Part shown: piece by piece, positions 9,683 to 61,647 of the stretch
Numbering within the stretch: the first letter of the stretch is position 1
Layout of the letters: each line of letters starts with the position of its first letter
Assembly: GCA_000092065.1 (NCBI GenBank)
Contig: CP000597.1
Strand: one strand, 5' to 3'
From: Ostreococcus lucimarinus
Taxonomy: Eukaryota
DNA: 64,000 bases
The notes under the pieces: model-generated
Database searches by the model: none
Seen by the model: the letters and a program-made list of their open reading frames with translations, nothing else
Told to the model about the DNA's origin: nothing
Made by a program: the position numbers and the translations under genes

Positions 9683-11683
9683 ATGCGCGTCGCGACGTCC
9701 GCGACGTCCGCGCGCGCGCTCGGCGCGCCGTCCCTCGCGCGCGCCGTCCCTCGCGCGCCGCGAATCGCGCGCGCGAACCGCGCGCGATGGATGAAGCGCG
9801 CGCGCGCGACGACGACGACGCGCGACGACGCGACGAGAGACGACGACGACGCGCGCGCGGCGACGATTCACGTGCCGTCGCTCGTGCGGCGCATGCGAGC
9901 GATCGCGCGGCGCGGATGCGCGATCATTCGAGAGGTGACGGAGGGCGGCGACGTCGGCGCGCGGGACAAGGGCGGCGCGCAGCGGGCGGACGGGACGTAC
10001 GTGGCGGACGCGCAGACGGAGGCGGATCGACGCGTGGAGGCGATGGCGATCGGTGCGCTGCGAGCGTTTTCGAAGGATTTGAATCTGGTGGCGGAGGAGA
10101 GCTTCGAGTGCGCGGCGACGATCGAGGCGTACGCGGGGGCGGGGGAGTGGACGACGATCGCGGATCTGGAGGCGGAGGACGAGGACGAGGCGGACGAGAC
10201 GTGGGCGCCGGAACTGAGAAAACCGATCGCGGCGTCGAGGGTGGCGGTGTATTGCGATCCGTTGGATGGGACGAACGAGTACGCGGCGGGTGAGCGGGAG
10301 GCGATCACGGTGCTGTTGGGGGTGGCGGTGGACGGGACGCCGCGCGCGGGGGTCATCGGACAGCCGTTTCACGAGCGCGGGAAGAGCGAGGATTTGGGTC
10401 GGGTGGTTTGGGGAGGCGCCGGCGTCGGCGTGCACGGATTGGACATCGCCGAAGACGCGCTGGCGCCGCCCGTGCCGCCGCACGGCGCGCACGTGGTGGC
10501 GGTGAATAGGAATTTACGAGAAAACAGACAGGCGCCCGTGCTCGAGGCGTTGCAATCGCGCGTGGACGTCGTCATCAGCGCCACGGGATTTCATTATTTG
10601 ATGCTCCTGGAGCGGCGCGCGCACAGCGCTTTATTACTTAGGAAAGCGTCAAAGAAGTGGGACACGTGCGCGGGGGAGGCGCTGCTGCGTGCGACGGGAG
10701 GAATCGTCACCGACACCGTCGGTCGGCGGTACGACTACTCGTACAACTTGAACGCGTTGCCGAATCTGAGCGGCATGGCGGCGAGTTTAGACGTCGGCAT
10801 GCACTGCGAGATGACGGGAATCATTCGAGACGTCATCGAACCGCTCGGTGATTATCCGTACGACGTCGATGATCCCTCCATCAGACCGAGCGTGCTCGAC
10901 GGCGTGCAAACGCCCGCCGGCGGCTGGCGCGCCGTCACGGTGGACGTCGGCGGATGTCTCATCGAGCCTCGCGAACGCGTCGCTGACGTGTACGCGCGCA
11001 CCGCGCGCTCGATCGGTATCGATTACGTAACCAGCGAAACCGCGTCGCACGATTTCAAAGAGGCTTTCGCCAAGTTTCGCGGCTCGGATGAACCGAACGC
11101 CATGCGATACTACGACGACGGGAAATCGTTTTGGCGTAAAGTCATCGCGCACGTGTTATCGCGCGGCGGGGCTCGAGCTTCCGCGGATGACGCCGTCGTG
11201 GAAACGATGTTGACGAAGCTGTATGAATATTACGAGCACCCGAGCGCGTGGTACGTCGCGCACGGCGCCGTCGACGCCATCTCCCGACTCCGAAGATCCG
11301 GCGTCAAAGTCGCCGTGGCGTCGAATTGGGATTCCAGGTTACCTAAACTTTTGGAATCCCTCGATTTGGCGCGACATTTCGACGCCATCGTCGTCTCAGC
11401 CATCGAAGGGTGCGAAAAGCCATCCAAAGAGTTCTTCACGAAGTGTCTCAACGCCGTGGACGTCCCCGCGTCTGCGACTTTACACGTCGGCGACGACGAG
11501 CGAAACGACGTCTCCGGCGCCGTCGCCGCCGATTTCGCGTGCGCCGTCCTGTGGGCGCCGCCGCGTCCCGCCACCGCTTCCAGTCCCGCCCCCGCCCCGC
11601 GCGTGCGAGACTTCAACGAGCTCACCGACGCGATATTATCCGCCAACCGCGCGCACGTCACCCACAAACACTATTTTCAGTAA
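9683..11683 (+). CDS. Inositol monophosphatase/PAP-phosphatase-like domain fused to HAD-superfamily hydrolase
   Basis: VAVYCDPLDGTNEY (IMPase metal-binding motif) in the N-terminal half. The C-terminal half has HAD motifs: TVDVGGCLIEP (motif I DxDGxL), VAVASNWD, and HVGDDERNDVSGA (motif IV). Confidence 0.65.
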   Translation: MRVATSATSARALGAPSLARAVPRAPRIARANRARWMKRARATTTTRDDATRDDDDARAATIHVPSLVRRMRAIARRGCAIIREVTEGGDVGARDKGGAQRADGTYVADAQTEADRRVEAMAIGALRAFSKDLNLVAEESFECAATIEAYAGAGEWTTIADLEAEDEDEADETWAPELRKPIAASRVAVYCDPLDGTNEYAAGEREAITVLLGVAVDGTPRAGVIGQPFHERGKSEDLGRVVWGGAGVGVHGLDIAEDALAPPVPPHGAHVVAVNRNLRENRQAPVLEALQSRVDVVISATGFHYLMLLERRAHSALLLRKASKKWDTCAGEALLRATGGIVTDTVGRRYDYSYNLNALPNLSGMAASLDVGMHCEMTGIIRDVIEPLGDYPYDVDDPSIRPSVLDGVQTPAGGWRAVTVDVGGCLIEPRERVADVYARTARSIGIDYVTSETASHDFKEAFAKFRGSDEPNAMRYYDDGKSFWRKVIAHVLSRGGARASADDAVVETMLTKLYEYYEHPSAWYVAHGAVDAISRLRRSGVKVAVASNWDSRLPKLLESLDLARHFDAIVVSAIEGCEKPSKEFFTKCLNAVDVPASATLHVGDDERNDVSGAVAADFACAVLWAPPRPATASSPAPAPRVRDFNELTDAILSANRAHVTHKHYFQ

Positions 11684-12031
11684 CCGTCGCGCGAATCGAT
11701 TCGATCTCGCGATGTAACATCGAGCCCGCGCGTCCACATGGGACACCTTGACCCCTCACACGGCGTCGCGTCGTTCGCGCGGTCGTCATCGGCGCCCGTG
11801 AAACGTCTTTAGAACCACCCTCGTTCGCCGCGCGGGCTGGACCTCGCGTCGTCTCGCGTCGTCGGACGTCATCTTTCCCGCGTTCGGCGCGTTTGGCTTG
11901 AAATCTCATCGCGGCGGCGTTCGGGTTCGTCGCGCGCGCGAGTCGTCGTCGAACGTCGCGCGGCGAAGTCATCGATCGCCGTGGATTCGTTCGGAAGACT
12001 TCGCGTGCGCGCCGTTTGCGCGACGTAGACG

Positions 12032-13747
12032 ATGGAACCCGCGGGACGACGACGCCGGGACCGACGGGCGCCGAGCGCCGGGACGTCGCGGTCGGCGTCG
12101 CCGGCGAACGCGCCGTCGGGACGCGCTTCTTCAGATTTTACGCCGCAAACGCCGACGACGCGAGATCGCGAGAGCGCGCGCGCGGTGCCGACGGCAGCGG
12201 TTCAAGCGCAGACGCAACCACCGTTGCCACCGACGCCACCGCCGGACGCGAAGACGGGAGATGTGAAAATTTTGGGTCGGCGACATCGCGAGCGCGGCGG
12301 CGGCGGGCGAGGCGCGGGACGCGGGACGTCGCCGGGAGCGGTGGCGCGAGCGCCGGTGGCGGTCCCGGTCGCGAGCGATCACTCGGTGTCGCCCACGCAC
12401 GGCGCACACGTGCCGAGTCACGTACCGAGCCCGATGAGTTTGGACTCGCCGAGCGCGCGCGCGGCGCAAGGACGCGAAGTTATCGATTTGAGCGCGGAAA
12501 TGTACGAGGACGAACAGCCGTACGTGGAAATTTTGCACATTCCGAACAACAAGGTTGGATTGGTGATCGGACGCGACGGACGACACGTTGGATTCGTACA
12601 GAATCGCACGGGGACGCGGATATCGATCGCGAGAGATTCGTGGGATGGGTCTAGGCGACGCGTGGAAATCGAAGGACCGCCGGAGCGGTGCCGGGAGGCG
12701 GCGACGATGATTCAGCGACTGATCGCATCCGCGGATGATCGCGATCGGGAGATCAGTGAGGGCGCGATCAGGGCGTTGTTTGAGGGGTTGGAGGTCGCGG
12801 AAACCGCGGTGATGGCGGCGAACGTCGTCGCGAGTCAACGGGCGAGGGAAGAATTGGCGGACGACGCGGATGCGCAATTCGACGATTCGTCGGCGGATTT
12901 CGACGGTCGCGGTATGCCTGGCGCGCCGCGAGGTGCGCCACCGTCCGCGAGACAAGGACCGGCGACGGCGACGATGACGATTCCGCACACGAAAGTCGGG
13001 ATGATCATCGGTCGGGGCGGAGATAACGTCAAGTACATTCAGCAACAGACGCACGCGCGGATTCAGATTCAGACGGATGCGGAGACGCCCGAGGGCGCGC
13101 CCAATCGTATGGTTTACCTTCGCGGTCCCGTGGAAGCCTGCCGTCACGCCGCGCGATTGATCAACGATATGTGCATCGGTCGAGTGCTCATTCACGCGCC
13201 CGTGCCGCATCACGGAGCTTTGATGACGCCAGCCATGCCCGGAGAACCGCTCGATCGCGGCGATCGCGGCGCGGGGAAAGCCGTCGCGTCCGGGGGCGGT
13301 GGCGCGCCGCCGTACCCGAGCTCGAGATCGGCGTACGGACCGATGCAAATCGATTACTCCGCGATACCCGCGATGTACCCACCGCCGTATTTCGGGCAGC
13401 CTTACACGGGACTTTACAACGTCGGCGCGTACCCTCACGAGATGATGCCGTACTGGAACCAATACGCGACGTACTACGGTCAGCCGCCGATGATGACTCC
13501 GTACGATCTGGGCGGCAAGGAAGGACAGACGGTGTACTACGAACAACCCGCGACGCCACCGTTTCGTTACGGCGAGGAAATCGAGCGCGGCCAGGGTGAA
13601 AGCGAAGGCGAGGTCGAGGTCGAGGGCGAAGGCGTCGCCGAGCCCCAACCGCGCGCCGATTCGCCCTCGTCGCCCGAATCGAAAGACGCCGTCTCGGACT
13701 CCACGCGATCTCCGACGACGCCCAAACAACACCAGCGGCAAACATGA
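12032..13747 (+). CDS. KH-domain RNA-binding protein (two type-I KH domains, Pro/Tyr/Met-rich tail)
   Basis: ILHIPNNKVGLVIGRDGRHVGFVQNRTGTRISI and MTIPHTKVGMIIGRGGDNVKYIQQQTHARIQI are KH-fold GxxG loops. The C-terminus is low-complexity (PYFGQPYTGLY). The N-terminal ~100 aa are low-complexity, so the start is uncertain. Confidence 0.6.
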   Translation: MEPAGRRRRDRRAPSAGTSRSASPANAPSGRASSDFTPQTPTTRDRESARAVPTAAVQAQTQPPLPPTPPPDAKTGDVKILGRRHRERGGGGRGAGRGTSPGAVARAPVAVPVASDHSVSPTHGAHVPSHVPSPMSLDSPSARAAQGREVIDLSAEMYEDEQPYVEILHIPNNKVGLVIGRDGRHVGFVQNRTGTRISIARDSWDGSRRRVEIEGPPERCREAATMIQRLIASADDRDREISEGAIRALFEGLEVAETAVMAANVVASQRAREELADDADAQFDDSSADFDGRGMPGAPRGAPPSARQGPATATMTIPHTKVGMIIGRGGDNVKYIQQQTHARIQIQTDAETPEGAPNRMVYLRGPVEACRHAARLINDMCIGRVLIHAPVPHHGALMTPAMPGEPLDRGDRGAGKAVASGGGGAPPYPSSRSAYGPMQIDYSAIPAMYPPPYFGQPYTGLYNVGAYPHEMMPYWNQYATYYGQPPMMTPYDLGGKEGQTVYYEQPATPPFRYGEEIERGQGESEGEVEVEGEGVAEPQPRADSPSSPESKDAVSDSTRSPTTPKQHQRQT

Positions 13748-45275: not shown

Positions 45276-48200
45276 ATGGAGTACGTCGACGCGTCAACGC
45301 TGCGAAAACTGTCGACGTCGGGTGACATCATCATCGTCGACGCGAGCTGGGCGATCGCGAACGACGTCGAGCGCGCGCGCGCGGCGCACGAGAGCGAGCG
45401 CATCCCGAACGCGACGTTTTATGATCACGACGAGGTGTGCGACCTGTCGTCGCCGCTGCCGCAGGCGTTCCCGCCGCGGGAAGCGTTCGCGCGAGGCGTC
45501 GGCGGCGGACTCGGGGCGACGAAGACGCGAGACGTGGCGATATACGCGAAAAACGGCGCGTCTTGCGCGGCGGAGGCGTGTGCGTTCGCGTTCTTGGAAT
45601 ATGGACATCGAGGACGGGTGATGGTGCTCAAGGGAGGGATGGAGGCGTGGAAGGCGGAAGGCTACGAGACGGAGGTCGGGGCGGAGACGATGCGCGAGCG
45701 GGCGACGGTGGAGTACGACGAAGACGGATCGAACGGAACGCGCGAGGGGAAGAAATCGGGATTCGTCGACGCGAAAGATTTGTTGACGAACTTGAGCACG
45801 CAGCGGTTGCAAGTGCTGGATTGCCGACAGTCGGAGGTGTTCGCGGGAGGGGCGAGAGACGCGGCGTACGTTCGGATTCAGGATCGAGCGATTCAGTTCG
45901 AGGGCTTCCGCGAAGGGCACATTCCGGGGGCGAAGAATTTACCGTACACGCGGTTGTTCGACGTCGCGGACGAAAACTTGCGAGAAATATTCGAGGGCGC
46001 GGGGTTGGACCTGTCCATGCCCGTGGCCGTGGTCGGTTCGGGGGGCGTCGACGCGGCGCCGATGGTGGCGTCAGCGCTCACGCGCGCCGGGTGCGCCGAC
46101 GCCGTGGTGCTAAAGAACGGTATGTGTGCGTGGTGCACGGCGCAAGGGAGCTCGTATCCGATGTCCATCGCTAGCACTTCTCCGCACGCTTCGCACAACG
46201 AAAAGCGCCTGATCGTTTGGGCGGTGACTCGATCGCGCGGCACCGCGCTCGAACGCTCGTTCTCTATGCACTCCGAGGCGATGGTCATGCACGAGTTACT
46301 CACGGAGCCGTGCTTGAAGGAGAATAATCCGGAAAATTACGCCAAGATTGTCAGTGGACAATCTGAACATCATGTCGCGAGCAGTGGATGCAGCTATGCG
46401 ACGATGTTAGAGGTGATGACGGCGGATTACTCCGCGCAAGGACGTCCATTCTTCTTCTCCAAAGAGCTGTCGTGTTACTTTGACTTGAAGCAAATGAAGT
46501 CGAGCTGGTTAAAACGGTTCACGCACGTGGTGTTGATTCGACAACCGACGGAAACGATAGAGTCATTTTATCGCGTCTCCATTGAACACAAGGAAGGGAG
46601 CTGCTATTATGATCCATCTGAGGCTGGATTTGCGGAAGCTTTTGGTATCGTAAACGCGTTGAAGCGTATCAATGCCAAGGTTATGGTCGTCGACGCTGAC
46701 GCGGATTTGCTGTCGCGACCAGAGGAGACGCTCCAAGAGATGTGTTCGCTGGCAAACGTGAACTTTGAGAGTTCGATGTTGTCATGGAAGCCCGCAGAGT
46801 TGTCAACGTGGATCAAATTTCGCGGTTGGCACGACGATGCGGCGAGATCGAGCGAGTTCAAAGCTGTCGACAAGGCACCGATGCAAAACGTACCGCCGGA
46901 ACTCTGCGTCGATGCGGCGAAGCAACAACCGTATTACGACGCCATAGGGTGGGAGCGCAAAGAAACTTCCAAGCGTTGGCCGTTCTTACGCCAGCTCACG
47001 AATCCGACGCATCGGTTCTCCGTCGTCGTGTGCGCATCGGATGAAGGCGCTATGGATATGTTCCCTCGTCTTGCCGCCGCGCGTCTGAGCGGCGTCAACT
47101 TGTACGAGTTCAAGCCGAGCGAAGTTGATCAGGCGATGAATAAATGCCCGTATATTTTCGACGACCCGATCGTTCTAGTGGGCGCACACGGACCCACGCT
47201 GCACATGGCCGAGGCACTGCGCGAGCGTGCGCAGAAGGACGGAACTTTGTGCATCGTACGCATAGTTCTCGTCGACGCTTCGGCGCATCGCGTTCGACCC
47301 GAAGGATTCGAGCACAGCTGGGTCCCAGAAGATTCGCTCAAGGATCAAACCAGCATGGACGAAGTTTTACAGAGTATTTTAGTCGACATCGAAACGGCAC
47401 AAAGCAAAAGTGCGAAGGAGATGGCGGATGTGAACGCGTTAGCCTCGACGACGACGTCGGCGGCGACGCACTGGCGCTCGGGTTTGGCGACGGCGTTGCA
47501 AGACGCTCGCTCCGACAAACCTTGCGTTACAGATGCGACGAGTACGTACACGATGAAAGAAGTGTACTCGCGTGCGTATCACGTCGCAGATATGCTCACC
47601 GAACGCGGTGCGCTGAACTCTCGTGTGGGTTTGTTTGTGCAAGCCTCCGCGGCGTCGGTGTGGTGCGCCATGGGTTCACTCTTGTGTGAATCTGTGTTTT
47701 GCGAAATCCCCGCGTGGTATCGCGACACCGACCTCGAACGCGTGTTGCGTTTGAACGAGTCGAAAGTCATAATAACTTCTCGTGATCTCGTGCAGTTCGT
47801 ACCCACCGCGTACAGAGACTTGGTCGTGGTCGTCGAGGACATGGAGTACGACGTCGACTTGAGCGGCGAGCTTCATCCGGCGCTGACGCGTCCTGACACT
47901 CCCGATGCCCCCGGGTTCTCCGTACTCACCAGTGGCACTACTGGTGTGAGTAAAATTCTGTGCTGTCCACAATCCGCGCTGACGGACTCGCAATCGGTCA
48001 TTGGGCCACACATGCGTGGCGACGATGTCATGGGGAGCTTTTGGGTCTATTATTACTTCTTCATTCCGCTCCTCGCTGGTCGCACGCTGAGCGTCATCCC
48101 GAACGATTTCTTCCTCAAGCCCCGAGAGTTGATTTCGTATGTGCGAAGTCAAAAAATGACCATGCTTTACCTCAGTCCGAGTATCCTGGAGAGCTGTTTG

Positions 48201-51200
48201 TTGCACTGCACGCCGCAAGAGTTCTCCGAAGGGATGCAAGACGTGCACACAATTTTATTGACCGGTGAACGCGTGCGAAGAGAGACTCGTATGCTTCTCG
48301 CCGAGCGTCTCACCCGTACGCGTTTGATTGACGTGTACAGCACGAACGAAACGGGTGATTTGGCGATATCTGATTACGGTGGAGCGTTCTTCCTGCGTGA
48401 GGGCACGCAAGCGCGCGTGTTGACGGATGACGGCAAGCCAGCTGTTCGCGGCACCGTCGGCCAGCTTCACGTTAAAAAGAGTGGTTTGCTCGTTGGCTTC
48501 TACACGGATAACGGTTACGCGAAGATCGAAAGCGAGTGGTATCCAACTGGCGATCTCGTTCGTTGGTTAGGTCGCAACAGGTTGACTTTTGAATCTCGTC
48601 AAAAGTCGGCATACGTCAAGATTCGTGGCTTCAAGGTTTCGCCGGTCATGGTACAAGACGTCATGCTCAAGATGCCAGTGATTAAACAGGCCATCGTGAG
48701 CACGATCGGACAGTCTGACATTGACCAGCAACTCGTCGCTGCTATCTCCTTCAACAACGGTGCGCGAGCGAAGGAGAGCGAATTGCGGGCACACATGGCA
48801 GCGCACGTGCCGCACTACATGATTCCGTCGACGTTTTACGACCTCGGCAACAAAGTGTCCACAGCTACCTCTGGTAAAGTGGTCAAGCTTGATGTCGATA
48901 GGCTGGACAAAATCACCGATAGTAACGAAGTGCAACTGACTACAAAGCAAAATGAGGTCGTGGAGGTGTGGCGCCAAGTGTTAGATCAACCGGAGAAGAA
49001 CTTCGCGGCGACGGAGAGCTTTTTCGACTACGGCGGAAGCTTGAAATTTGTTGAGCTTGCGGCGGCACTTTCGAAGAAATGGGGGGTGAGTTTGACGGTT
49101 CCCGAAGTCATCGCCAAGCCGACGCTGGCTGAGATGGCCCTACTTATGGAAGATTATAAAAACGCCAAGTTTGAGCCCGAGGTCGAAGTCGCAAAGTATG
49201 ACTTTTCCGAGTTCAAGCGAGCGCCAAAGAAGAATACTGCGGCGGGCAAGAAGAATATTCTCCTTACCGGCGCTACTGGTTTTCTTGGTGCGTACTTGCT
49301 TCAAGAACTCGCCGCAAGCGATGAAATTGATCAGATTTACGCTATCGTGCGCGCAAAAGACAAGTTTGCGGCGCAAAATCGCGTGCTCGATGTCTTCCGT
49401 AAGCGCGGGCTCACGTTTACCGATCAAATAACGCAAAAGACAACGTTCATGTGTGGTGACATGTCAATGCCGTTGTACGACATACCCGAAGCCACGCTCG
49501 CGCCAGTTTTGGAAGTGATTGACGTTGTCATCAGCGGTGGCGCGGAAGTCAATATGGTGAAGTCTTATTCAGCGTTAGAAAAGGTAAACGTCGGAGGAAC
49601 GTTCAACGGGCTCGAGATCGCGTCGCGCGCCGGCGCTAGACACGTTCTCATTTCCACGCAGTATCCGCTTCCGGGTGAAGTTTCAACGGGATACCGACGA
49701 AGTAAAGAGGTCGCGGAGATGCTATGCGAGCGCGCGCAGAAAGAAGTTGGCGTTGAGTCGGCCGTTTTATTGTTTGGTGACATCGGTATTTCTCGTGCCG
49801 TCGGTTCGCTCGCGCCCGACGATGACTACATCGTCATCTTCCTCCGCGCCTGCCTCGCGACAGGTTTCTTCCCACGTACCGAGTGGGCTGTTAGTATCTT
49901 GTGCGTCGATGATTGCGTGAAGATGCTCACGTCAATCTCATTATCCGGCCAAGTCGATCGTTATGCGTTTGACGGCGTCGCGCGTGAAGTAAAGGGTAAA
50001 CTGATGCCGTTTTCTCAACTTTACGAATGGCTCTCCAAGGAGTACGCGTTGCAGCTGTGCAGCTACGATGGCTGGCTCAATGCAGTTAAGGCTGGCGCCG
50101 CCGAAGGCAACACGATCCTTCAGCGCGCGCTCCTGACGATTGATTCCATGGAAGTCGAACTCAGAGCGGAGGGTGAGCACTTCAACTCGCAGGCGGCGTC
50201 AGATGCGCTCTTCTCCGTGGACGAAGCGTGGGGTAAGAACCTCGTCGGTGCGCTAATTCTCGAACTCTACAGCGAACTTCAAAATGACGACAAAGACACC
50301 ACCATCGGCTTCGCCGCGTTGGCGCAAGGCGAAGATTTGGTTCCGTTCAAGTATCGCCTCCCAGACATGACCCCGACGTCTGTCGAGGTGAAGGTCGAGT
50401 ACTGCGGCTTGTGCGGAAGTGATGATCACTTGATCGTGGGTGACTATGGTGAATATGCGGTGTGGCCGCAAGTTTGCGGACACGAAGTCGTGGGTACGGT
50501 CACCCAAGTTGGCACGGCGGTGACGACGCTAAAAGCCGGTCAACGCGTTGGCGTCGGCTGGCAGAGCTCGTCTTGCCACGATTGCGAGTGGTGCGCGCGA
50601 GGCGATGAGCAGCTGTGCTCTAGTGTCGGTTGTACATGCTGCGAAGGTAACAAAGGTGGTTTCGCCGATCGCATGCGCTTAAACGACTCGCAATTCTGCT
50701 ACAAAATCCCAGACGCGCTGTCTTCCGCGGAAGTCGCGCCGTTGCTATGCGGTGGCCAAACCGTTTGGACGCCTTTGAACGAGCAAACGAAGTCTAGCGA
50801 TCGCGTCGGCATTCTCGGCCTCGGTGGACTCGGTCACATGGCCATCAAGTTCGCCAAGGCGCTCGGTCGAGAAGTCACCGCGATTTCGTCTTCGGCGTCG
50901 AAGCGCGCCGACGCCCTGTCGCACGGCGCGTCGCGCTTTTTGGTGCACACCAACCAAGAAGAGATGGATGCCGCCGCCTCATCGCTCGACTTCATCCTAG
51001 TCACCATCGCCACGAATAAAGAGGTGGACTTCGCGAAGTTTTTCCCCTTGTTACGCCCGCGTGGGACGATTTGTTTCGTCGGCATGTGCCCTCCCATCCA
51101 AGCCGACGTCTTCACTCTCGGCTTCACCATGAACAACATCACAACGAGTAACACCGGGGGCAAAAAGGACATGGTTCAAATGCTCGAATTCTGCGCCCGA

Positions 51201-51374
51201 CACAAGATCGGCGCCTCCGTCGCCGTGAGTCCGCTCAGCGAGATCAACACCGCCATCACGGCTTTGCGCACGGGCGAATCCCACTTCCGACACGTCCTCG
51301 TCAACGACGTCTCGAGCGGTAGTCAACACCGTCGCATGGCCAGCGCCTTCGGCAGCGGCTTCCCTTCCCGTTAA
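45276..51374 (+). CDS. Intronless 2032-aa megaenzyme: 2x rhodanese-like – PAPS-type sulfotransferase – AMP-binding adenylation – carrier protein – thioester reductase (SDR) – Zn-dependent alcohol dehydrogenase (MDR)
   Basis: Rhodanese folds at about aa 1-290 (IIIVDASW...; second active-site loop reads VAVVGSGGVDAAP, so the catalytic Cys is missing). Sulfotransferase: LIVWAVTRSRGTALERSF (5'-PSB) and VVLIRQPTETIESFY (3'-PB). Adenylation: FSVLTSGTTGVSKILCC (A3), YSTNETG (A5), YPTGDLVRW (A7), VKIRGFKV (A8), GKVVKLDVDRL (A10 Lys). Carrier: FFDYGGSLKFVELAAAL (Ser attachment). Reductase: ILLTGATGFLGAYLLQEL. ADH: GLCGSDDHLIVGDYG...CGHEVVGTVTQVG and ILGLGGLGHMAIKFAKALG. Confidence 0.85.
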   Translation: MEYVDASTLRKLSTSGDIIIVDASWAIANDVERARAAHESERIPNATFYDHDEVCDLSSPLPQAFPPREAFARGVGGGLGATKTRDVAIYAKNGASCAAEACAFAFLEYGHRGRVMVLKGGMEAWKAEGYETEVGAETMRERATVEYDEDGSNGTREGKKSGFVDAKDLLTNLSTQRLQVLDCRQSEVFAGGARDAAYVRIQDRAIQFEGFREGHIPGAKNLPYTRLFDVADENLREIFEGAGLDLSMPVAVVGSGGVDAAPMVASALTRAGCADAVVLKNGMCAWCTAQGSSYPMSIASTSPHASHNEKRLIVWAVTRSRGTALERSFSMHSEAMVMHELLTEPCLKENNPENYAKIVSGQSEHHVASSGCSYATMLEVMTADYSAQGRPFFFSKELSCYFDLKQMKSSWLKRFTHVVLIRQPTETIESFYRVSIEHKEGSCYYDPSEAGFAEAFGIVNALKRINAKVMVVDADADLLSRPEETLQEMCSLANVNFESSMLSWKPAELSTWIKFRGWHDDAARSSEFKAVDKAPMQNVPPELCVDAAKQQPYYDAIGWERKETSKRWPFLRQLTNPTHRFSVVVCASDEGAMDMFPRLAAARLSGVNLYEFKPSEVDQAMNKCPYIFDDPIVLVGAHGPTLHMAEALRERAQKDGTLCIVRIVLVDASAHRVRPEGFEHSWVPEDSLKDQTSMDEVLQSILVDIETAQSKSAKEMADVNALASTTTSAATHWRSGLATALQDARSDKPCVTDATSTYTMKEVYSRAYHVADMLTERGALNSRVGLFVQASAASVWCAMGSLLCESVFCEIPAWYRDTDLERVLRLNESKVIITSRDLVQFVPTAYRDLVVVVEDMEYDVDLSGELHPALTRPDTPDAPGFSVLTSGTTGVSKILCCPQSALTDSQSVIGPHMRGDDVMGSFWVYYYFFIPLLAGRTLSVIPNDFFLKPRELISYVRSQKMTMLYLSPSILESCLLHCTPQEFSEGMQDVHTILLTGERVRRETRMLLAERLTRTRLIDVYSTNETGDLAISDYGGAFFLREGTQARVLTDDGKPAVRGTVGQLHVKKSGLLVGFYTDNGYAKIESEWYPTGDLVRWLGRNRLTFESRQKSAYVKIRGFKVSPVMVQDVMLKMPVIKQAIVSTIGQSDIDQQLVAAISFNNGARAKESELRAHMAAHVPHYMIPSTFYDLGNKVSTATSGKVVKLDVDRLDKITDSNEVQLTTKQNEVVEVWRQVLDQPEKNFAATESFFDYGGSLKFVELAAALSKKWGVSLTVPEVIAKPTLAEMALLMEDYKNAKFEPEVEVAKYDFSEFKRAPKKNTAAGKKNILLTGATGFLGAYLLQELAASDEIDQIYAIVRAKDKFAAQNRVLDVFRKRGLTFTDQITQKTTFMCGDMSMPLYDIPEATLAPVLEVIDVVISGGAEVNMVKSYSALEKVNVGGTFNGLEIASRAGARHVLISTQYPLPGEVSTGYRRSKEVAEMLCERAQKEVGVESAVLLFGDIGISRAVGSLAPDDDYIVIFLRACLATGFFPRTEWAVSILCVDDCVKMLTSISLSGQVDRYAFDGVAREVKGKLMPFSQLYEWLSKEYALQLCSYDGWLNAVKAGAAEGNTILQRALLTIDSMEVELRAEGEHFNSQAASDALFSVDEAWGKNLVGALILELYSELQNDDKDTTIGFAALAQGEDLVPFKYRLPDMTPTSVEVKVEYCGLCGSDDHLIVGDYGEYAVWPQVCGHEVVGTVTQVGTAVTTLKAGQRVGVGWQSSSCHDCEWCARGDEQLCSSVGCTCCEGNKGGFADRMRLNDSQFCYKIPDALSSAEVAPLLCGGQTVWTPLNEQTKSSDRVGILGLGGLGHMAIKFAKALGREVTAISSSASKRADALSHGASRFLVHTNQEEMDAAASSLDFILVTIATNKEVDFAKFFPLLRPRGTICFVGMCPPIQADVFTLGFTMNNITTSNTGGKKDMVQMLEFCARHKIGASVAVSPLSEINTAITALRTGESHFRHVLVNDVSSGSQHRRMASAFGSGFPSR

Positions 51375-57537: not shown

Positions 57538-58077
57538 CTACCGACCGTCCAAAACGCTCGCGTCCACGCCGTCGAGGTTCATCTTATTGCGCACCGCCTG
57601 CGCGGGCACGCCCATCTTCAGCATCTTGAAGTAAATGGAGTACTTCGGATCGCTCGCGCGCGCGTTCGTCTCCGGCGTCGCCGCCGTCGCCGCCTCCGCC
57701 GTCGCCGCCTCCGCCGTCGCCGTCGCCGCCGTCGCCGCCGCCGCCGTCGCCGTCGCCGCCTCCGCCGTCGCCGCGTCCGCCGCGTCCGCCGCGTCCGCGC
57801 CCCGACCGTCGTCCTCGCGCGTCGCCGCCTCCGCCGTCGTCGTCGTCGTCGTCGCCGTCCCCGCCTCGAGCGCGCGCTCCAACAGCGCCGTCCTCGCCTC
57901 CGCCTCTCGCAGCGCGCGCGCCGCCGCGCCCAGCTTCGCCTCCGCGCTCGCGCACAGCGCGTCGAGCGTCGTCGCCGTCCGCGCCGCCCGCGCGTTCAGC
58001 GCGCTCGCCATCGCCTGGTCGTTCGCCGCGGGCAAGCGCGCGCGAAGTCTCGCCAGCGCGTCGCCCATGCGTCGGTC
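57538..58077 (-). CDS. WASH complex subunit 3 (CCDC53)-like small coiled-coil protein
   Basis: N-terminal coiled coil. C-terminal SDPKYSIYFKMLKMGVPAQAVRNKMNLDGVDASVLD resembles the conserved CCDC53 C-terminal box (KYFKMLKMGVP..AV..KM). An internal Ala/Thr-rich tract is encoded by (GCG/ACG)n. Start assigned to MGDALARL. Confidence 0.35.
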   Translation of the reverse strand, partial: DRRMGDALARLRARLPAANDQAMASALNARAARTATTLDALCASAEAKLGAAARALREAEARTALLERALEAGTATTTTTTAEAATREDDGRGADAADAADAATAEAATATAAAATAATATAEAATAEAATAATPETNARASDPKYSIYFKMLKMGVPAQAVRNKMNLDGVDASVLDGR

Positions 58078-58132
58078 GTCGCGCGCGCGTCGCGACGTGC
58101 GGACGACGCGCGCGTTCGAATTCAAACGCGCG

Positions 58133-58195
58133 CGGCATCGCTCGACGCGCGCGGCATCGCTCGACGCGCGCGGCATCGCTCGACGCGCCGTCTTC
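58133..58195. repeat. 21-bp tandem repeat x3 (gcgcgcggcatcgctcgacgc) in the divergent promoter between the WASHC3-like and Nse2-like genes
   Basis: Three perfect or near-perfect adjacent copies lie between the two divergent start codons (58077 minus, 58238 plus). Confidence 0.7.
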
Positions 58196-58237
58196 GCGCC
58201 GACGCGCGCGTCGGCGGGCGCCATAATACACGTCGCG

Positions 58238-58930
58238 ATGTCGGCGTCGCCGCGATTGAGCGCGGTGCGGCTCGCGGCGAGCGTCGAGGCGCGCATCGAC
58301 GAGACGCGCGAATCGATCGAACACGTGCGAATCGCGTGCGAAGCGGCGACGGAGGCGGCGCGGATCGCCGAACGGGACGCGAGAGGGTCGTCGAAGGCGC
58401 TGCGAGCGAAGGTGGAGGCGCTGTGCGAGCTGAAGCGGGAGAAGCTGGCGCGGGTGGACGCGCTGGAGGCGCTGCGGCGAGAGTACGAGTGCGCGGCGAC
58501 GACGGAGTTTAATTTTGAGGAATACCTGACGAAGAAGACGAAACATTACGCGAGTAAGCGTCGACAAGAGTTGGAATACTTGATAGCGTTCGATGAGGCG
58601 GTGCGGGGGGTGGATGGGGACGATTTGGACGCGGATTTGGTGTTGGACGAAGAAGACGGGACGGCGGGGGCGAGAAACGCGAAGTGTCCGCTGACGGCGA
58701 AACGGATCGAGGCGATCGATGAGCCGGTGGAGGATAAGATGGGATTCATCTACGAGAAGGACGCGATCATGAGGTACATCGGGTCGAAAAAATCGGTGGA
58801 TTGCCCAGAGGCGGGGACGAGGCACAAGGTGAGTAAGGCGGATCTCAAGCCTTCGCGGACGGCGCTCAAGATGAAACAAAGAGCCGAGGGACTGGACGAG
58901 GACGATTCCGGGCAGTTACTGTCGCCGTGA
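58238..58930 (+). CDS. SP-RING (zf-Nse) E3 SUMO ligase Nse2/Mms21-like
   Basis: C-terminal KCPLTAKRIEAIDEPVEDKMGFIYEKDAIMRYIGSKKSVDCPEAGTRHKVSKADLKP follows the Nse2 SP-RING pattern (CPLT...P...C.H.FEKDAI..........CP..GC). A helical N-terminal region matches the Nse2 architecture. The track ORF upstream of 58238 is Ala/Val low-complexity. Confidence 0.55.
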   Translation: MSASPRLSAVRLAASVEARIDETRESIEHVRIACEAATEAARIAERDARGSSKALRAKVEALCELKREKLARVDALEALRREYECAATTEFNFEEYLTKKTKHYASKRRQELEYLIAFDEAVRGVDGDDLDADLVLDEEDGTAGARNAKCPLTAKRIEAIDEPVEDKMGFIYEKDAIMRYIGSKKSVDCPEAGTRHKVSKADLKPSRTALKMKQRAEGLDEDDSGQLLSP

Positions 58931-59048: not shown

Positions 59049-60632
59049 CTAATAAAGACCGATCACCTTCCACCAAAGACCGCCGAAGACGAGCCAGATG
59101 AGAACGTTGGCGACGCCACAGATGGCGCCGATGCGGAAGTAATCCTTAAGCTCGACGAAGCCGGCGCCGAAGTAGCACGCGGATTGCCCCGAGGCGTAGT
59201 GCGTGATGCCGCCGAAGAGGTTGGTGTGGAAAGCCATGGTGAGGCCGACCAATATGGGCGGCGCGCCGGCAGCCATCATCATCGCCATGAACGCCGTGGA
59301 AAGCGCGGCGACTTGCGCGGTTTGAGACGCGAACAAGTAGTGAATGGAAAAGTAGCAACCGTGGAGCAAAAGCATGACTTGCGGCCACGCCAAGTTGGCC
59401 GCCGTCAATGCGCCGGCGACGGTGGTGGAGAGATAATCGATGAAACCCAGGGCGTTGAGCTGACCAGACATACCGATCAAGACGGCGAACCACAACAACG
59501 TATCCCAAGCGCCCTTTTCGTTCAAGCACTCGGCCCAGGAAATGACGCCGGAGATGAGTTGAAGGGACATCCCGAACATGGCGGCGACGACGGGCGCGAT
59601 GCCAAAGGGTTGGAAAATCCACATGAACACCGTGATGCTCATCGTAGCGACGACCATGAGCTCATCTTGAGACAAAGGACCGAGTTCTTTCAGCTTTGCC
59701 GCCGCCTCCGCGGGAGCGTCGGGCGTGCTTTGCACCTCCGGTGGGTACAACTTGTACACCAAGAGCGGGGTGACGAGCAAACCGATGATCGCCGGGACGC
59801 ACGCCGCCTTGAACCACGTGATCCACGGCGAAGCGACGATGATGCCGAGAGAAGCCGCGAGCTTGAGACTCAACAAGTTTTGAGCCGCCGCGGTCATGCA
59901 CATCGCGCTCGAGTGTCCGCTCGATTGCAGTTGCGTTTGCACCAAAAACGCCCCGAGCTTGCGCGACGTCGGCCCCGGCTCTGACCCCGCCTGCTTGGCG
60001 AGGGACGTGATGATGGGCAAGTACACCCCACCCGCGCGCGCCGTCGTGGACGGCATCGCGGGCGCGAGCAAAGCCTCAGAGATGGTCAGACCGTAAGACA
60101 GACCGAGCGTAGACTTGCCGAGCGCGCGCACGAACATCGTCGCCACGCGGTCGCCCAACCCCGTGCGCACGAAACCGCGCGCGAAGAAGAACGCGAGCAC
60201 GATGAGCCAAATCACATCATTCGTCATCGCTCCGAACGCCGCTTGAAAGCTCAGCGTCTTCGTCACCACCGCCGTGGTCAACCCGACGAACGCCCACGCC
60301 CCCACCGGCAACGGCCCCAACACGAGCCCGCAAATCGTCGACAAAAAAATGCTCAACAGCGCCCACGCCTGCGGCACGACCGCCTCCGGTCGCGGCACAA
60401 TAAAGTTCACCACCAACCCCACGCCCACGGACGCGGCGAGCGGGACCAAATTCGCTCCCTTCCACACGAACGGCGTCGCCGCCGCGCTCGCGTTCGCCGC
60501 GCGCGCCGCGCCCGCGACCACCGCCTCTCGCCGTCGCGCTCGCGTCGCGCCCGCCGCGCCTCGCGCGCTCGCGCACGTCGCACACGCGCACGCGCGCGCG
60601 TGCGCGTCTCCGCGCGTCGTCGGCAGCGCCAT
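59049..60632 (-). CDS. Plastidic 2-oxoglutarate/malate (dicarboxylate) translocator DiT, DASS family
   Basis: FVWKGANLVPLAASVGVGLVVNFIVP..., SEALLAPAMPSTTARAGGVYLPIITSL, HTNLFGGITHYASGQSACYFGAGFV, and IWLVFGGLWWKVIGLY are DiT1/DiT2 hallmark blocks. Start assigned to MALPTTRGD, a transit-peptide-like leader. The track ORF is over-extended to 61352. Confidence 0.75.
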   Translation of the reverse strand: MALPTTRGDAHARACACATCASARGAAGATRARRREAVVAGAARAANASAAATPFVWKGANLVPLAASVGVGLVVNFIVPRPEAVVPQAWALLSIFLSTICGLVLGPLPVGAWAFVGLTTAVVTKTLSFQAAFGAMTNDVIWLIVLAFFFARGFVRTGLGDRVATMFVRALGKSTLGLSYGLTISEALLAPAMPSTTARAGGVYLPIITSLAKQAGSEPGPTSRKLGAFLVQTQLQSSGHSSAMCMTAAAQNLLSLKLAASLGIIVASPWITWFKAACVPAIIGLLVTPLLVYKLYPPEVQSTPDAPAEAAAKLKELGPLSQDELMVVATMSITVFMWIFQPFGIAPVVAAMFGMSLQLISGVISWAECLNEKGAWDTLLWFAVLIGMSGQLNALGFIDYLSTTVAGALTAANLAWPQVMLLLHGCYFSIHYLFASQTAQVAALSTAFMAMMMAAGAPPILVGLTMAFHTNLFGGITHYASGQSACYFGAGFVELKDYFRIGAICGVANVLIWLVFGGLWWKVIGLY

Positions 60633-61647
60633 CGTCGTCGCCGTCGTCGTCGTTCGCGCGCGTCGTCCCGTCGTCGTCGTCGTCGTTCGCGCGCGTCGTC
60701 CCTTCGTCGCGCCGTCGCGCGCGCGCGCGTCGACGCGCGCGCCGATCGCTCTCGCGCTCATCACCGCGCGCATCGTTCGCGTCGAGCGTCGCGCGCGCGC
60801 GTGTGCGGCGTCGCGCGCGTCGAGGTCGTTAGGGCAAATCGAGGCCCCCTCGGAGATAAATGCCGGGAATCGCGTATTCGACGCGTTCGAACGCCGTGTA
60901 TATATATCCGAATGTCCGAATTCATACATCACCGCGCACTGAATGCCCACACGAAGGCGCGCCGACGTCGCCCGCCCCCGCGCCGCGCGCGCGCGCGTCG
61001 CCACACGTCGACGCCCGTCGACATGTTCACGCTCGCGACGCGCCCGACGACGACGCGCGCGACGCGCGTCCCGACCGCGAGCCGACGCCGCTCGACCGCC
61101 GTCGCGCTGACGATGCGCGCGTCGACGACGCCGAACGCGCTCGCGCTCGGCGACACGCCGCGCCGAGTCGCGCTGCAGCGCCGACGGATGACGACGACGA
61201 CGGCGGCGGCGCCGCGAGGCGTCGTCGCGGCGACGGAGGTGCGCGCGCGCGAGCGATGCGATCGACAAAAATTTGCGCGAGCGATCGGGGAGGCGCGGGA
61301 GGCGCGGAGACGCGCGCGGCGCGCGGGGGGGGGCGAGACGACGCGCGAACAAACCCTGGATGGGGTTTCGAGGCGTCGCGCGCGATGGCGCGATGGCGCG
61401 GTGACGCGCGCGGGGGGGGCGACGCGGACGCGCGCGCGCGGTGGAGAAGAAACGAGCGCATCGCGCGGGCGATGCGGGGGACGACGCGCGCGCGAGGAAG
61501 GGGTGGGAGGCGCGAGAGAACGAGAAGGCGATAGGGTTGGCGCTCGGCGGCGAGGACGGCGAGGACGCGGGCGCGAGGGGCGCGCGCGCGATGGACGCGC
61601 GTGGGATATGGAGTACTGACGATGTGTTGATGTTTTACCGCGCGTAG

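Follow-up and report, generated by a model that had tools for sequence, protein, structure and literature searches.

A predicted sulfotransferase joined to a nonribosomal peptide synthetase-like carboxylate reductase and an alcohol dehydrogenase in one protein of Ostreococcus lucimarinus

Results

We describe here a gene in a 64,000-nucleotide stretch of the Ostreococcus lucimarinus genome (GenBank assembly GCA_000092065.1, contig CP000597.1), the whole of which we refer to as the window. The gene is a single open reading frame (ORF) of ~6.1 kb that runs from an ATG to a stop codon without interruption (45276..51374) and encodes a protein of 2032 amino acids (aa) with the domain order Rhd-Rhd-ST-alpha/beta-A-T-R-ADH, that is, two rhodanese (Rhd) domains, a sulfotransferase (ST), an alpha/beta domain, the adenylation (A), carrier (T) and thioester reductase (R) domains of a nonribosomal peptide synthetase (NRPS)-like enzyme, and an alcohol dehydrogenase (ADH). 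The ORF and all of its features lie on the plus strand. Matches above the Pfam gathering score are, in order, Rhodanese twice (aa 3-288), Sulfotransfer_5, AMP-binding, PP-binding, NAD_binding_4, ADH_N and ADH_zinc_N. NCBIfam agrees, assigning the N-terminus to a 3-mercaptopyruvate-sulfurtransferase (MST)-like model, the middle to NRPS adenylation and thioester-reductase models and the C-terminus to an Ahr-like aldehyde reductase. A preliminary description of this DNA, made from its letters alone, had proposed a single uninterrupted ORF with the named domains in this order; both points are confirmed, and every domain it named was found, although it missed a folded flavodoxin/CheY-like domain between ST and A.

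The public record of this gene is much shorter. The reference protein XP_001422100.1 (A4S9P0; O. lucimarinus CCE9901, 'predicted protein', 408 aa) matches the ORF product exactly from residue 1625 onward (aa 1625-2032; window 50148-51374), and the public gene model is therefore cut down to the ADH part and lacks the upstream 1624 residues. That the reference protein spans this part alone might suggest that the long ORF arose through an error of assembly or annotation, or represents several separately expressed genes, but we consider this extremely improbable. There are zero stops over the 6.1 kb, identical or orthologous full-length ORFs are found on many independent contigs and in Bathycoccus, the inter-domain order is kept, and ST-A-T-R is fused in bacteria too. 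The protein cluster P0001 (220 members, 12 contigs) has a 2032-aa representative that is reported as a 100% match to the ORF; P0001 was used for the window protein in our family alignments, where we noticed three differing positions (V/A, D/N and L/I), none of them in a motif. Furthermore, a 2044-aa peptide from the MMETSP0929 transcriptome of O. mediterraneus aligns end to end with the ORF at 68% identity. Because this peptide covers all domains, a single full-length transcript is supported in a sister species, and no splitting of the ORF into separate genes, an outcome the preliminary description had allowed for, was seen. With a full-length protein on many independent contigs and an end-to-end transcriptome orthologue, the ORF is not an artefact.

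The A domain (aa 741-1215; 47496..48920) is recognised by Pfam AMP-binding (92 bits, 744-1076) and by its core motifs: A3 LTSGTTGVSK (884-893), a shortened A4 GSFWVYYYFFIPLLAG (920-935), A5 DVYSTNETGDLA (1019-1030) and the A10 lysine, Lys1201. Motifs A3, A5, A7 and A8 and the A10 Lys are intact, and 14 family members share LTSGTTGVSK, YSTNE, YPTGD, KIRGFKV and K1201. The T domain (aa 1227-1288; 48954..49139; Pfam PP-binding, 37.7 bits) has its predicted attachment site, Ser1255, in the sequence GGSL rather than GG(H/D)SL, and GGSL is invariant in the 14 sequences. The R domain (aa 1327-1660; 49254..50255; NAD_binding_4 from 1330, 114 bits) carries the Rossmann motif LLTGATGFLG (1329-1338; GATGFLG 1332-1338) and the YxxxK pair typical of short-chain dehydrogenases/reductases (SDRs), Y1473-x3-K1477; it scores 153 bits against TIGR01746, below the cut-off of 213, and its nearest solved structure is the R domain of MxaA (4u7w). 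The C-terminal domain (aa 1678-2010; 50307..51305; ADH_N 1700-1813, ADH_zinc_N 1851-1974) is a Zn-dependent medium-chain ADH of the cinnamyl-alcohol-dehydrogenase (CAD)/Ahr type, with predicted ligands for a catalytic zinc (C1713, H1736 and E1737) and a structural zinc (C1767/C1770/C1773/C1781) and a nucleotide motif, GLGGLGH...ISSSxxKR, typical of CAD-type enzymes. Its nearest solved relatives are the bacterial ADHs 6c49 and 7bu2 and plant sinapyl/cinnamyl ADHs. The Ahr model gives 318 bits, below its equivalog cut-off of 470, and the domain thus appears to sit within the CAD/Ahr subgroup yet not to be Ahr itself.

In its A-T-R logic, predicted phosphopantetheine dependence and predicted NADPH-dependent reduction of a thioester to an aldehyde, the ORF product resembles carboxylic acid reductases (CARs) such as those of Nocardia and Segniliparus, and Lys2, but these enzymes take the acid only as far as the aldehyde, and neither an ADH nor an ST is fused to them. 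Nor do the similarity searches indicate kinship with them: the R part alone matches a CAR (5msc, E 1.6e-11), and the Lys2 model gives 135 bits against a cut-off of 1030. ATRR-type reductases (fungal, nematode and diatom proteins with the order A-T-R1-R2) are similar in that one polypeptide adenylates, thiolates and twice reduces an acid to a primary alcohol, converting glycine betaine to choline or tryptophan to tryptophanol (PMC11050029; PMC13194791). Unlike in ATRR, the second reductase of the ORF is a Zn-dependent medium-chain enzyme of the CAD/Ahr type, unrelated to that of ATRR, rather than a second SDR-type R domain, and the ORF adds ST, apparently dead rhodanese and flavodoxin-like domains. 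No fungal ATRR was among the matches of homologue searches with the ORF protein and with an A-T profile, and no close kinship in sequence was detected. Judged by similarity and domain type, the ORF product appears to work like a CAR without belonging to the CAR, Lys2 or ATRR clades.

The ST domain (aa ~305-560; 46188..46955) is assigned from a Sulfotransfer_5 match, from motifs for binding 3'-phosphoadenosine-5'-phosphosulfate (PAPS) and from its predicted fold. The Sulfotransfer_5 match covers aa 387-557 and scores 28.1 bits against a cut-off of 23.2. A 5'-phosphosulfate loop (5'-PSB), W315-AVTRSRGTALERS, lies at nucleotides 46218-46259, and in an AlphaFold model that covers aa 296-745 (pLDDT 79, pTM 0.82) the segment WAVTRSRGTALERS (315-328) forms a strand (E16-21), a loop and a helix (H26-35), which is the strand-loop-helix expected of a PKSGTT-like 5'-PSB. 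The R, S, T and A of this loop are invariant in homologues. Also invariant is the 3'-phosphate motif (3'-PB), R422...S430, whose two residues are 8 apart (nucleotides 46527-46565) and which aligns with LVRHPYSVIES of the CurM ST. The domain has, in addition, an invariant H339-E340, which is a candidate for the catalytic base, and FRGWHDDA (515-522; (K/R)GWH(D/E)DA in the family). These motifs are kept in every Ostreococcus clade, in the uncultured alga P0137 (see below) and in bacterial homologues from Pseudomonas, Halomonas and Rhodobacter. With PAPS motifs in the right secondary-structure context of the model, and with the predicted fold, the ST call seems to rest on more than the Pfam score.

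A sequence search of the PDB with the ST domain returned the CurM sulfotransferase as the only match, aligned across the 3'-PB motif, and structural comparison of the model likewise gave a sulfotransferase fold with the CurM/OLS sulfotransferases as the top match. As the closest matches of the ST domain are enzymes that sulfate carrier-bound beta-hydroxyacyl intermediates, sulfation could precede reduction. The ST might then act on a carrier-bound hydroxy acid, carnitine or another beta-hydroxy onium acid for instance, before R and ADH release a sulfated aldehyde and alcohol, or the sulfate might be a leaving group for elimination or alkyl transfer, in which case the product need not be a sulfate ester. 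We regard such tethered sulfation as unlikely, though deserving of some weight: sulfotransferases that act on free substrates score almost as well as CurM/OLS in the structural comparison, and the ORF has no thioesterase (TE). CurM/OLS termination modules have the order acyl carrier protein (ACP)-ST-TE and use sulfate as the leaving group for decarboxylative alkene formation, whereas the ORF has its ST at the N-terminus, has no TE and would release its product reductively; the ACP-ST-TE order was not found.

The flavodoxin/CheY-like alpha/beta domain between ST and A (aa ~570-715; 46983..47420) is folded in the model and accompanies the ST in stand-alone paralogues. These paralogues, from Mamiellophyceae (P0317-P0327 and P0142), have ~530-660 aa, the arrangement (Rhodanese)-Sulfotransfer_5-flavodoxin-like and 43-50% identity to aa 296-745; one of them is annotated 'P-loop containing nucleoside triphosphate hydrolase [Ostreococcus tauri]'. 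Stand-alone Sulfotransfer_5 proteins of ~230-260 aa with the motifs W-x-x-P-R-S-R-S-T-A and KGWHDDA occur in Rubrobacter and are widespread in actinomycetes (Nonomuraea, Herbidospora, Dactylosporangium and Kibdelosporangium; loci L016-L081). We also note three bacterial proteins of ~1000 aa from metagenomes (P0358, P0372 and P0404) with the order A-T-ST and an ST of the Sulfotransfer_3/Sulfotransfer_1 type, which appear to be another way to couple a carrier-bound acid to a sulfotransferase.

The N-terminus of the protein resembles the tandem rhodanese of MST and thiosulfate sulfurtransferase (TST): it has the two-domain fold, scores 80 bits to the MST model and can be aligned over 280 residues. 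Rhodanese domain 1 (aa 3-140; 45282..45695; Pfam Rhodanese) aligns to mouse and human MST and corresponds to the N-domain of the tandem, which in MST/TST-type proteins is normally non-catalytic. Rhodanese domain 2 (aa 166-288; 45771..46139) was aligned to MST 5wqk; the active site of mouse MST, TCGSGVTA, falls on VGSGGVDA, placing Gly254 (in VVGSGGVDA, nucleotides 46029-46055) at the position of the catalytic Cys. The preliminary description had likewise found no catalytic Cys here. Because Cys is replaced by Gly in O. lucimarinus, domain 2 is predicted to be catalytically dead in Ostreococcus and, in contrast to MST, not to be a sulfurtransferase. The Cys is kept in P0137 (CATGRTS) and is Ala in Bathycoccus, and the ancestral fusion protein probably had an active rhodanese that has died but been retained in Ostreococcus. 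Its present role would probably be that of a structural or an anion-binding or regulatory appendage.

The eight Pfam families recur in seven further clusters (67-78% identity, 2024-2099 aa), one of them from O. mediterraneus. Searching exhaustively with HMMER, with the N-terminal 732 aa as query, we recovered this architecture from Bathycoccus prasinos (CAL6311780.1; 2011-2042 aa; 32% identity) and from P0137, a 2142-aa protein of an uncultured, GC-rich (70%) alga from a metagenome, so that the architecture is kept in all Ostreococcus clades, Bathycoccus and one other high-GC alga. The A-T profile search, which did not re-list the members of the family (probably owing to a word prefilter), returned no further eukaryotic lineages and one extra fragment with the pocket signature (P0329). 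Conservation is uneven along the protein. Among Ostreococcus species ST identity is 68-78%, as high as that of the A domain, and in P0137, which keeps a canonical rhodanese loop, no domain is better conserved than the ST (50%). In Bathycoccus identity is 73% for the ADH, 56% for R, 48% for A and 25% for the ST, the last being below the identity of bacterial STs to that of Ostreococcus. By these per-domain identities, the constant core of the family is A-T-R.

The same HMMER search found bacterial proteins of ~1340-1450 aa with the order Sulfotransfer_5-linker-A-T-R in Pseudomonas sp., Halomonas caseinilytica and a Rhodobacter metagenome-assembled genome (MAG), whose annotation goes no further than 'SDR family oxidoreductase' or 'acyl-CoA synthetase'. 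Scanning one genome per GTDB species, we obtained 14 ST-A-T-R loci, the gene being intact in 13 (gene counts are by tblastn). In all 13 intact loci a separate gene for a Zn-ADH of ~335 aa lies directly downstream. Adenylylsulfate (APS) kinase, which produces PAPS, has a gene in 10 of the 14 loci, directly after the ADH gene in seven, and an EamA-family transporter (a putative exporter) has one in all 14; the Halomonas locus also has a phosphopantetheinyl transferase (PPTase) gene. Full-length identity between the algal ADH domain and the operon ADHs is 45-48% in most cases (39% for Halomonas), and idiosyncratic stretches are common to both. The proteins of Pseudomonas veronii, P. gessardii, P. 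flavescens and P. baltica, Halomonas caseinilytica (WP_064702634.1) and the Rhodobacter MAG (MDJ0627474.1) are true homologues of the algal one (ST 30-36%, A-T-R 24-38% and ADH 39-48% identical), with the pocket signature W...NE(T/A)GD and GGSL in common. They differ in that rhodanese domains are absent, the ADH is a separate gene and tailoring genes are added (for a methyltransferase, a 2-oxoglutarate (2OG) oxygenase, a CntA-like Rieske protein and an enolase-superfamily enzyme). The second reductase that the preliminary description saw in the fused ADH, its assignment of a PAPS-type ST to the same pathway and its reading of A-T-R as CAR logic are all supported by these loci, the last in addition to the intact motifs.

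Eleven of the 14 loci contain a five-gene block encoding a methyltransferase, a 2OG-Fe(II) oxygenase, a 3-hydroxyisobutyrate-dehydrogenase (HIBADH)-like reductase, an enolase-superfamily enzyme and a Rieske oxygenase. The Rieske protein is nearest the carnitine monooxygenase CntA (6y8j, E 2e-68, full length) and then stachydrine demethylase, and its best NCBIfam model is GbcA (glycine betaine monooxygenase); the enolase-superfamily protein falls in the cis-3-hydroxy-L-proline dehydratase/hydroxyproline-betaine epimerase group. The Halomonas and Rhodobacter loci have a variant with a serine hydroxymethyltransferase (SHMT)-like enzyme, a sarcosine/pipecolate-oxidase-like flavoprotein and a methyltransferase. 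In Pseudomonas the genes form a conserved and apparently undescribed cluster (L003-L014, e.g. L009:2708-17209) with genes for the methyltransferase, 2OG oxygenase, HIBADH-like reductase, cis-3-hydroxyproline-dehydratase-like enolase, CntA-like Rieske protein, LysR, EamA, ST-A-T-R, Zn-ADH and APS kinase, and sometimes also an FAD/NAD(P)-binding protein; this cluster probably makes an exported sulfated small molecule. In Pseudomonas kairouanensis (L006, ~10001-13700) the ST-A-T-R gene is apparently disrupted or mostly deleted, the N-terminal part alone matching amid several short ORFs, and ADH, APS kinase and the five-gene block are absent while EamA, LysR and the FAD/NAD protein are still there.

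These loci bear on whether the algal ST is catalytic at all. If neither ST nor rhodanese were active, the protein would be a four-electron carboxylate reductase like ATRR, converting for example glycine betaine to choline, or dimethylsulfoniopropionate (DMSP) to 3-dimethylsulfoniopropanol for the head group of the lipid phosphatidyldimethylpropanethiol (PDPT). The predicted death of the rhodanese would fit such an enzyme, as would Bathycoccus, where the ST is degenerate and A-T-R-ADH is conserved at 47-73%. PDPT is a sulfonium lipid and a major extraplastidic lipid of O. tauri, and its head group is the alcohol that corresponds to DMSP (PMC8018280); an activity that reduces DMSP would supply this head group, to which we found no described route. 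We nevertheless think it distinctly unlikely that the enzyme is a reductase alone, given that PAPS motifs are strictly kept in all Ostreococcus clades, in P0137 and in bacteria, that the ST is conserved among Ostreococcus species at a level matching the A domain, and that APS kinase is co-located in most of the bacterial loci.

The pocket of the A domain provides some indication of the substrate. In PheA numbering, positions 235/236/239/278/299/301/322/330/331/517 read F(W)-W(V)-Y-Y-L-T-V-D-L-K, with 235/236 being F922/W923 or W923/V924 depending on the register, 239 Y926, 278 Y965, 299/301 L994/T996, 322 V1020, 330(331) D1028 and 517 K1201. Compared with TycA and twelve canonical A domains, a 6-residue deletion removes the segment carrying Asp235. 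W923, D1028 (the Asp of NE(T/A)GD) and the Lys are invariant across the 14 family members, and there are aromatic walls, formed in Ostreococcus by Tyr at 239 (Y926) and 278 (Y965) and in the bacteria and P0137 by Trp at 299. The fungal ATRR that reduces glycine betaine to choline has an aromatic cage, F201/W204/W270, plus E304 (10.1101/559534); set beside that published description, the predicted pocket of the ORF may be alike, as it is without Asp235, would offer no anchor for an alpha-amino group and has aromatic residues and one buried acidic residue at its predicted positions (W923, Y926, Y965 and D1028). Because the pocket lacks Asp235 and has the invariant Trp and Asp, and because the operon partners are betaine-related, the substrate is more likely a small, polar, positively charged acid, that is, a betaine or other onium acid or an amino acid. 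Glycine betaine, DMSP, beta-alanine betaine, carnitine, gamma-butyrobetaine and an omega-amino acid are candidates. The specificity code, the extraction of which the preliminary description had suggested, thus points to a small polar acid, albeit as an approximate code. We also considered sulfonate acids (cysteate to cysteinolate, sulfolactate to 2,3-dihydroxypropanesulfonate (DHPS)), which rank low as the invariant pocket Asp speaks against an anionic substrate.

The preliminary description had instead envisaged activation of a fatty or hydroxy-fatty acid by A, reduction to a fatty alcohol by R and ADH and formation of an alkyl sulfate or sulfolipid by the ST. A-T-R with NAD_binding_4 is indeed also the architecture of fatty-acid-reducing CARs, and NCBIfam models of long-chain fatty-acid CoA ligases match weakly, at 85 bits and well under their cut-off. 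The A domain is, however, nearer the amino-acid A domains of NRPSs (TycA, 5u89) than CAR or FadD9, where only the R part matches weakly, and its pocket is Tyr-rich, combining the invariant Asp with bulky aromatics. The operon partners, EamA, APS kinase, the CntA-like Rieske protein and the proline-betaine-type enolase, include zero lipid genes. A fatty-acid substrate and a lipid-like sulfate product are thus not borne out, and we give them little credence.

With respect to composition, the preliminary description had read low GC and a lack of introns amid intron-bearing neighbours as compatible with horizontal acquisition or strong constraint. The GC content of the ORF is indeed lower than that of the window (0.564 vs 0.620), but its GC at third codon positions (GC3), 0.68, lies inside the range of neighbouring ORFs (0.65-0.82). 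The flanking genes that we checked (PWWP, an unnamed 451-aa ORF, PIP5K, ubiquilin and RCC1) are likewise long uninterrupted ORFs with full-length domain matches. Neither trait sets the gene apart, the argument does not hold as stated, and we rejected composition as evidence for horizontal transfer, the rhodanese part alone being higher in GC3. Along the ORF, GC3 is 0.81 in the rhodanese part (45276-46160), 0.62-0.67 in the ST-A-T-R core (46161-50300) and 0.72 in the ADH; this contrast fits a composite origin, with a host-like N-terminus and an acquired core, yet is within the variation among neighbouring genes. An ancient transfer between bacterium and alga is plausible given the bacterial homologues.

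The neighbours of the ORF in the window are housekeeping genes (RCC1, FF-domain, PWWP, PIP5K, ubiquilin and an Nse2 zinc finger), and within the window we found no clustering of pathway genes around it apart from one conceivably related gene. This is a 767-aa ORF (59049-61352, minus strand, ~7.7 kb downstream) with a full-length match to Na_sulph_symp (DASS/SLC13, sodium:sulfate symporter family); it is the sole sulfur-related neighbour, and its position may be coincidence. Long ORFs also occur as mirror images on opposite strands, for example 57584-58879 on the minus and 57635-58930 on the plus strand, together with other overlapping pairs, as is typical of GC-rich DNA. A GC3 pattern of 0.86 vs 0.65 and a zf-Nse match indicate that the plus-strand ORF of this pair is the real gene.

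Discussion

We have found that a single O. lucimarinus protein joins the domains for three known functions: a carboxylic acid reductase, a second reduction of the kind performed by ATRR (here by a Zn-ADH) and a PAPS sulfotransferase. The identities of the domains, their intact cofactor and catalytic motifs, their conservation across the family and the equivalence of the algal fusion to a bacterial operon are direct observations. On balance, we think it probable, though with much room for doubt, that the protein is a single-polypeptide NRPS-like enzyme that starts from a small carboxylic acid and yields the matching primary alcohol as its O-sulfate ester. The A domain would adenylate the acid with ATP and load it as a thioester onto the phosphopantetheine arm at Ser1255 of T. 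R would release the aldehyde reductively with NADPH, the CAD/Ahr-type Zn-ADH would reduce the aldehyde to the alcohol, probably also with NADPH, and the ST would move sulfate from PAPS to a hydroxyl, most simply that of the new primary alcohol. From a cationic acid the product would be a zwitterion resembling choline-O-sulfate. We infer this order of steps, with sulfation last, and likewise which cofactors are used, to what class the substrate belongs and what role the enzyme has in the physiology of the alga. The algal fusion and the bacterial operon, taken together, point to the same pathway of adenylation, thiolation and reduction, a second reduction by ADH and PAPS-dependent sulfation, and the gene content of the bacterial loci supports the order acid, aldehyde, alcohol, sulfate ester.

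Several points weigh against this proposal. The Sulfotransfer_5 score is low (28 bits), the catalytic base is only a candidate, and both the nearest sequence match and the top structural match of the ST are CurM/OLS enzymes, which act on carrier-bound beta-hydroxyacyl groups. The ST motifs of Bathycoccus are degenerate (PNSHTD for TRSRGT) while A-T-R-ADH is well conserved, and the ADH of P0137 lacks its Zn ligands (GGQ for GHE); given this decay of one domain or the other, it would seem that not every lineage runs all four steps. As for the substrate, the 6-residue deletion leaves the A4 register uncertain by one residue and the specificity code approximate, and the betaine-related operon partners could be catabolic neighbours that lie outside the pathway.

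A more specific version of acid-to-sulfate conversion, which we put forward as a doubtful extension, is that Ostreococcus (and Bathycoccus in reduced form) reduces DMSP or glycine betaine, onium acids that are abundant osmolytes, and sulfates the alcohol, so that the metabolite formed would resemble choline-O-sulfate or be 3-dimethylsulfoniopropyl sulfate. The missing precursor of the PDPT head group could then be this alcohol, either free or activated by sulfate. If true, the conversion would be a new biosynthetic route in globally abundant picophytoplankton.

In agreement with the preliminary description, literature searches found no characterised enzyme with this domain order, and searches on the architecture, on sulfated metabolites in Mamiellophyceae and on choline-O-sulfate in picoprasinophytes found nothing specific; an algal genome-mining survey counts two 'Other(A)' genes in O. 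tauri and says nothing more. As an assembly-line-type carboxylate reductase with both its aldehyde reductase and a PAPS sulfotransferase in one chain, the protein would be the first of its kind, and thus a compact acid-to-alkyl-sulfate catalyst. We note that this is a clean Rosetta-stone case, in which the fusion of domains and the operon lead to one conclusion, and that a conserved, expressed megaenzyme is mis-annotated in the reference genome, where it stands as a 408-aa alcohol dehydrogenase. The predicted product class, a sulfated alcohol from a small and probably cationic acid, ties the alga to a gene cluster of Pseudomonas, Halomonas and Rhodobacter. Ostreococcus and Bathycoccus belong to the most abundant groups of eukaryotic phytoplankton, and much of what phytoplankton and bacteria exchange consists of small organosulfur and onium metabolites. 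The protein that we describe here, therefore, probably makes a sulfated metabolite in very abundant marine picoalgae.

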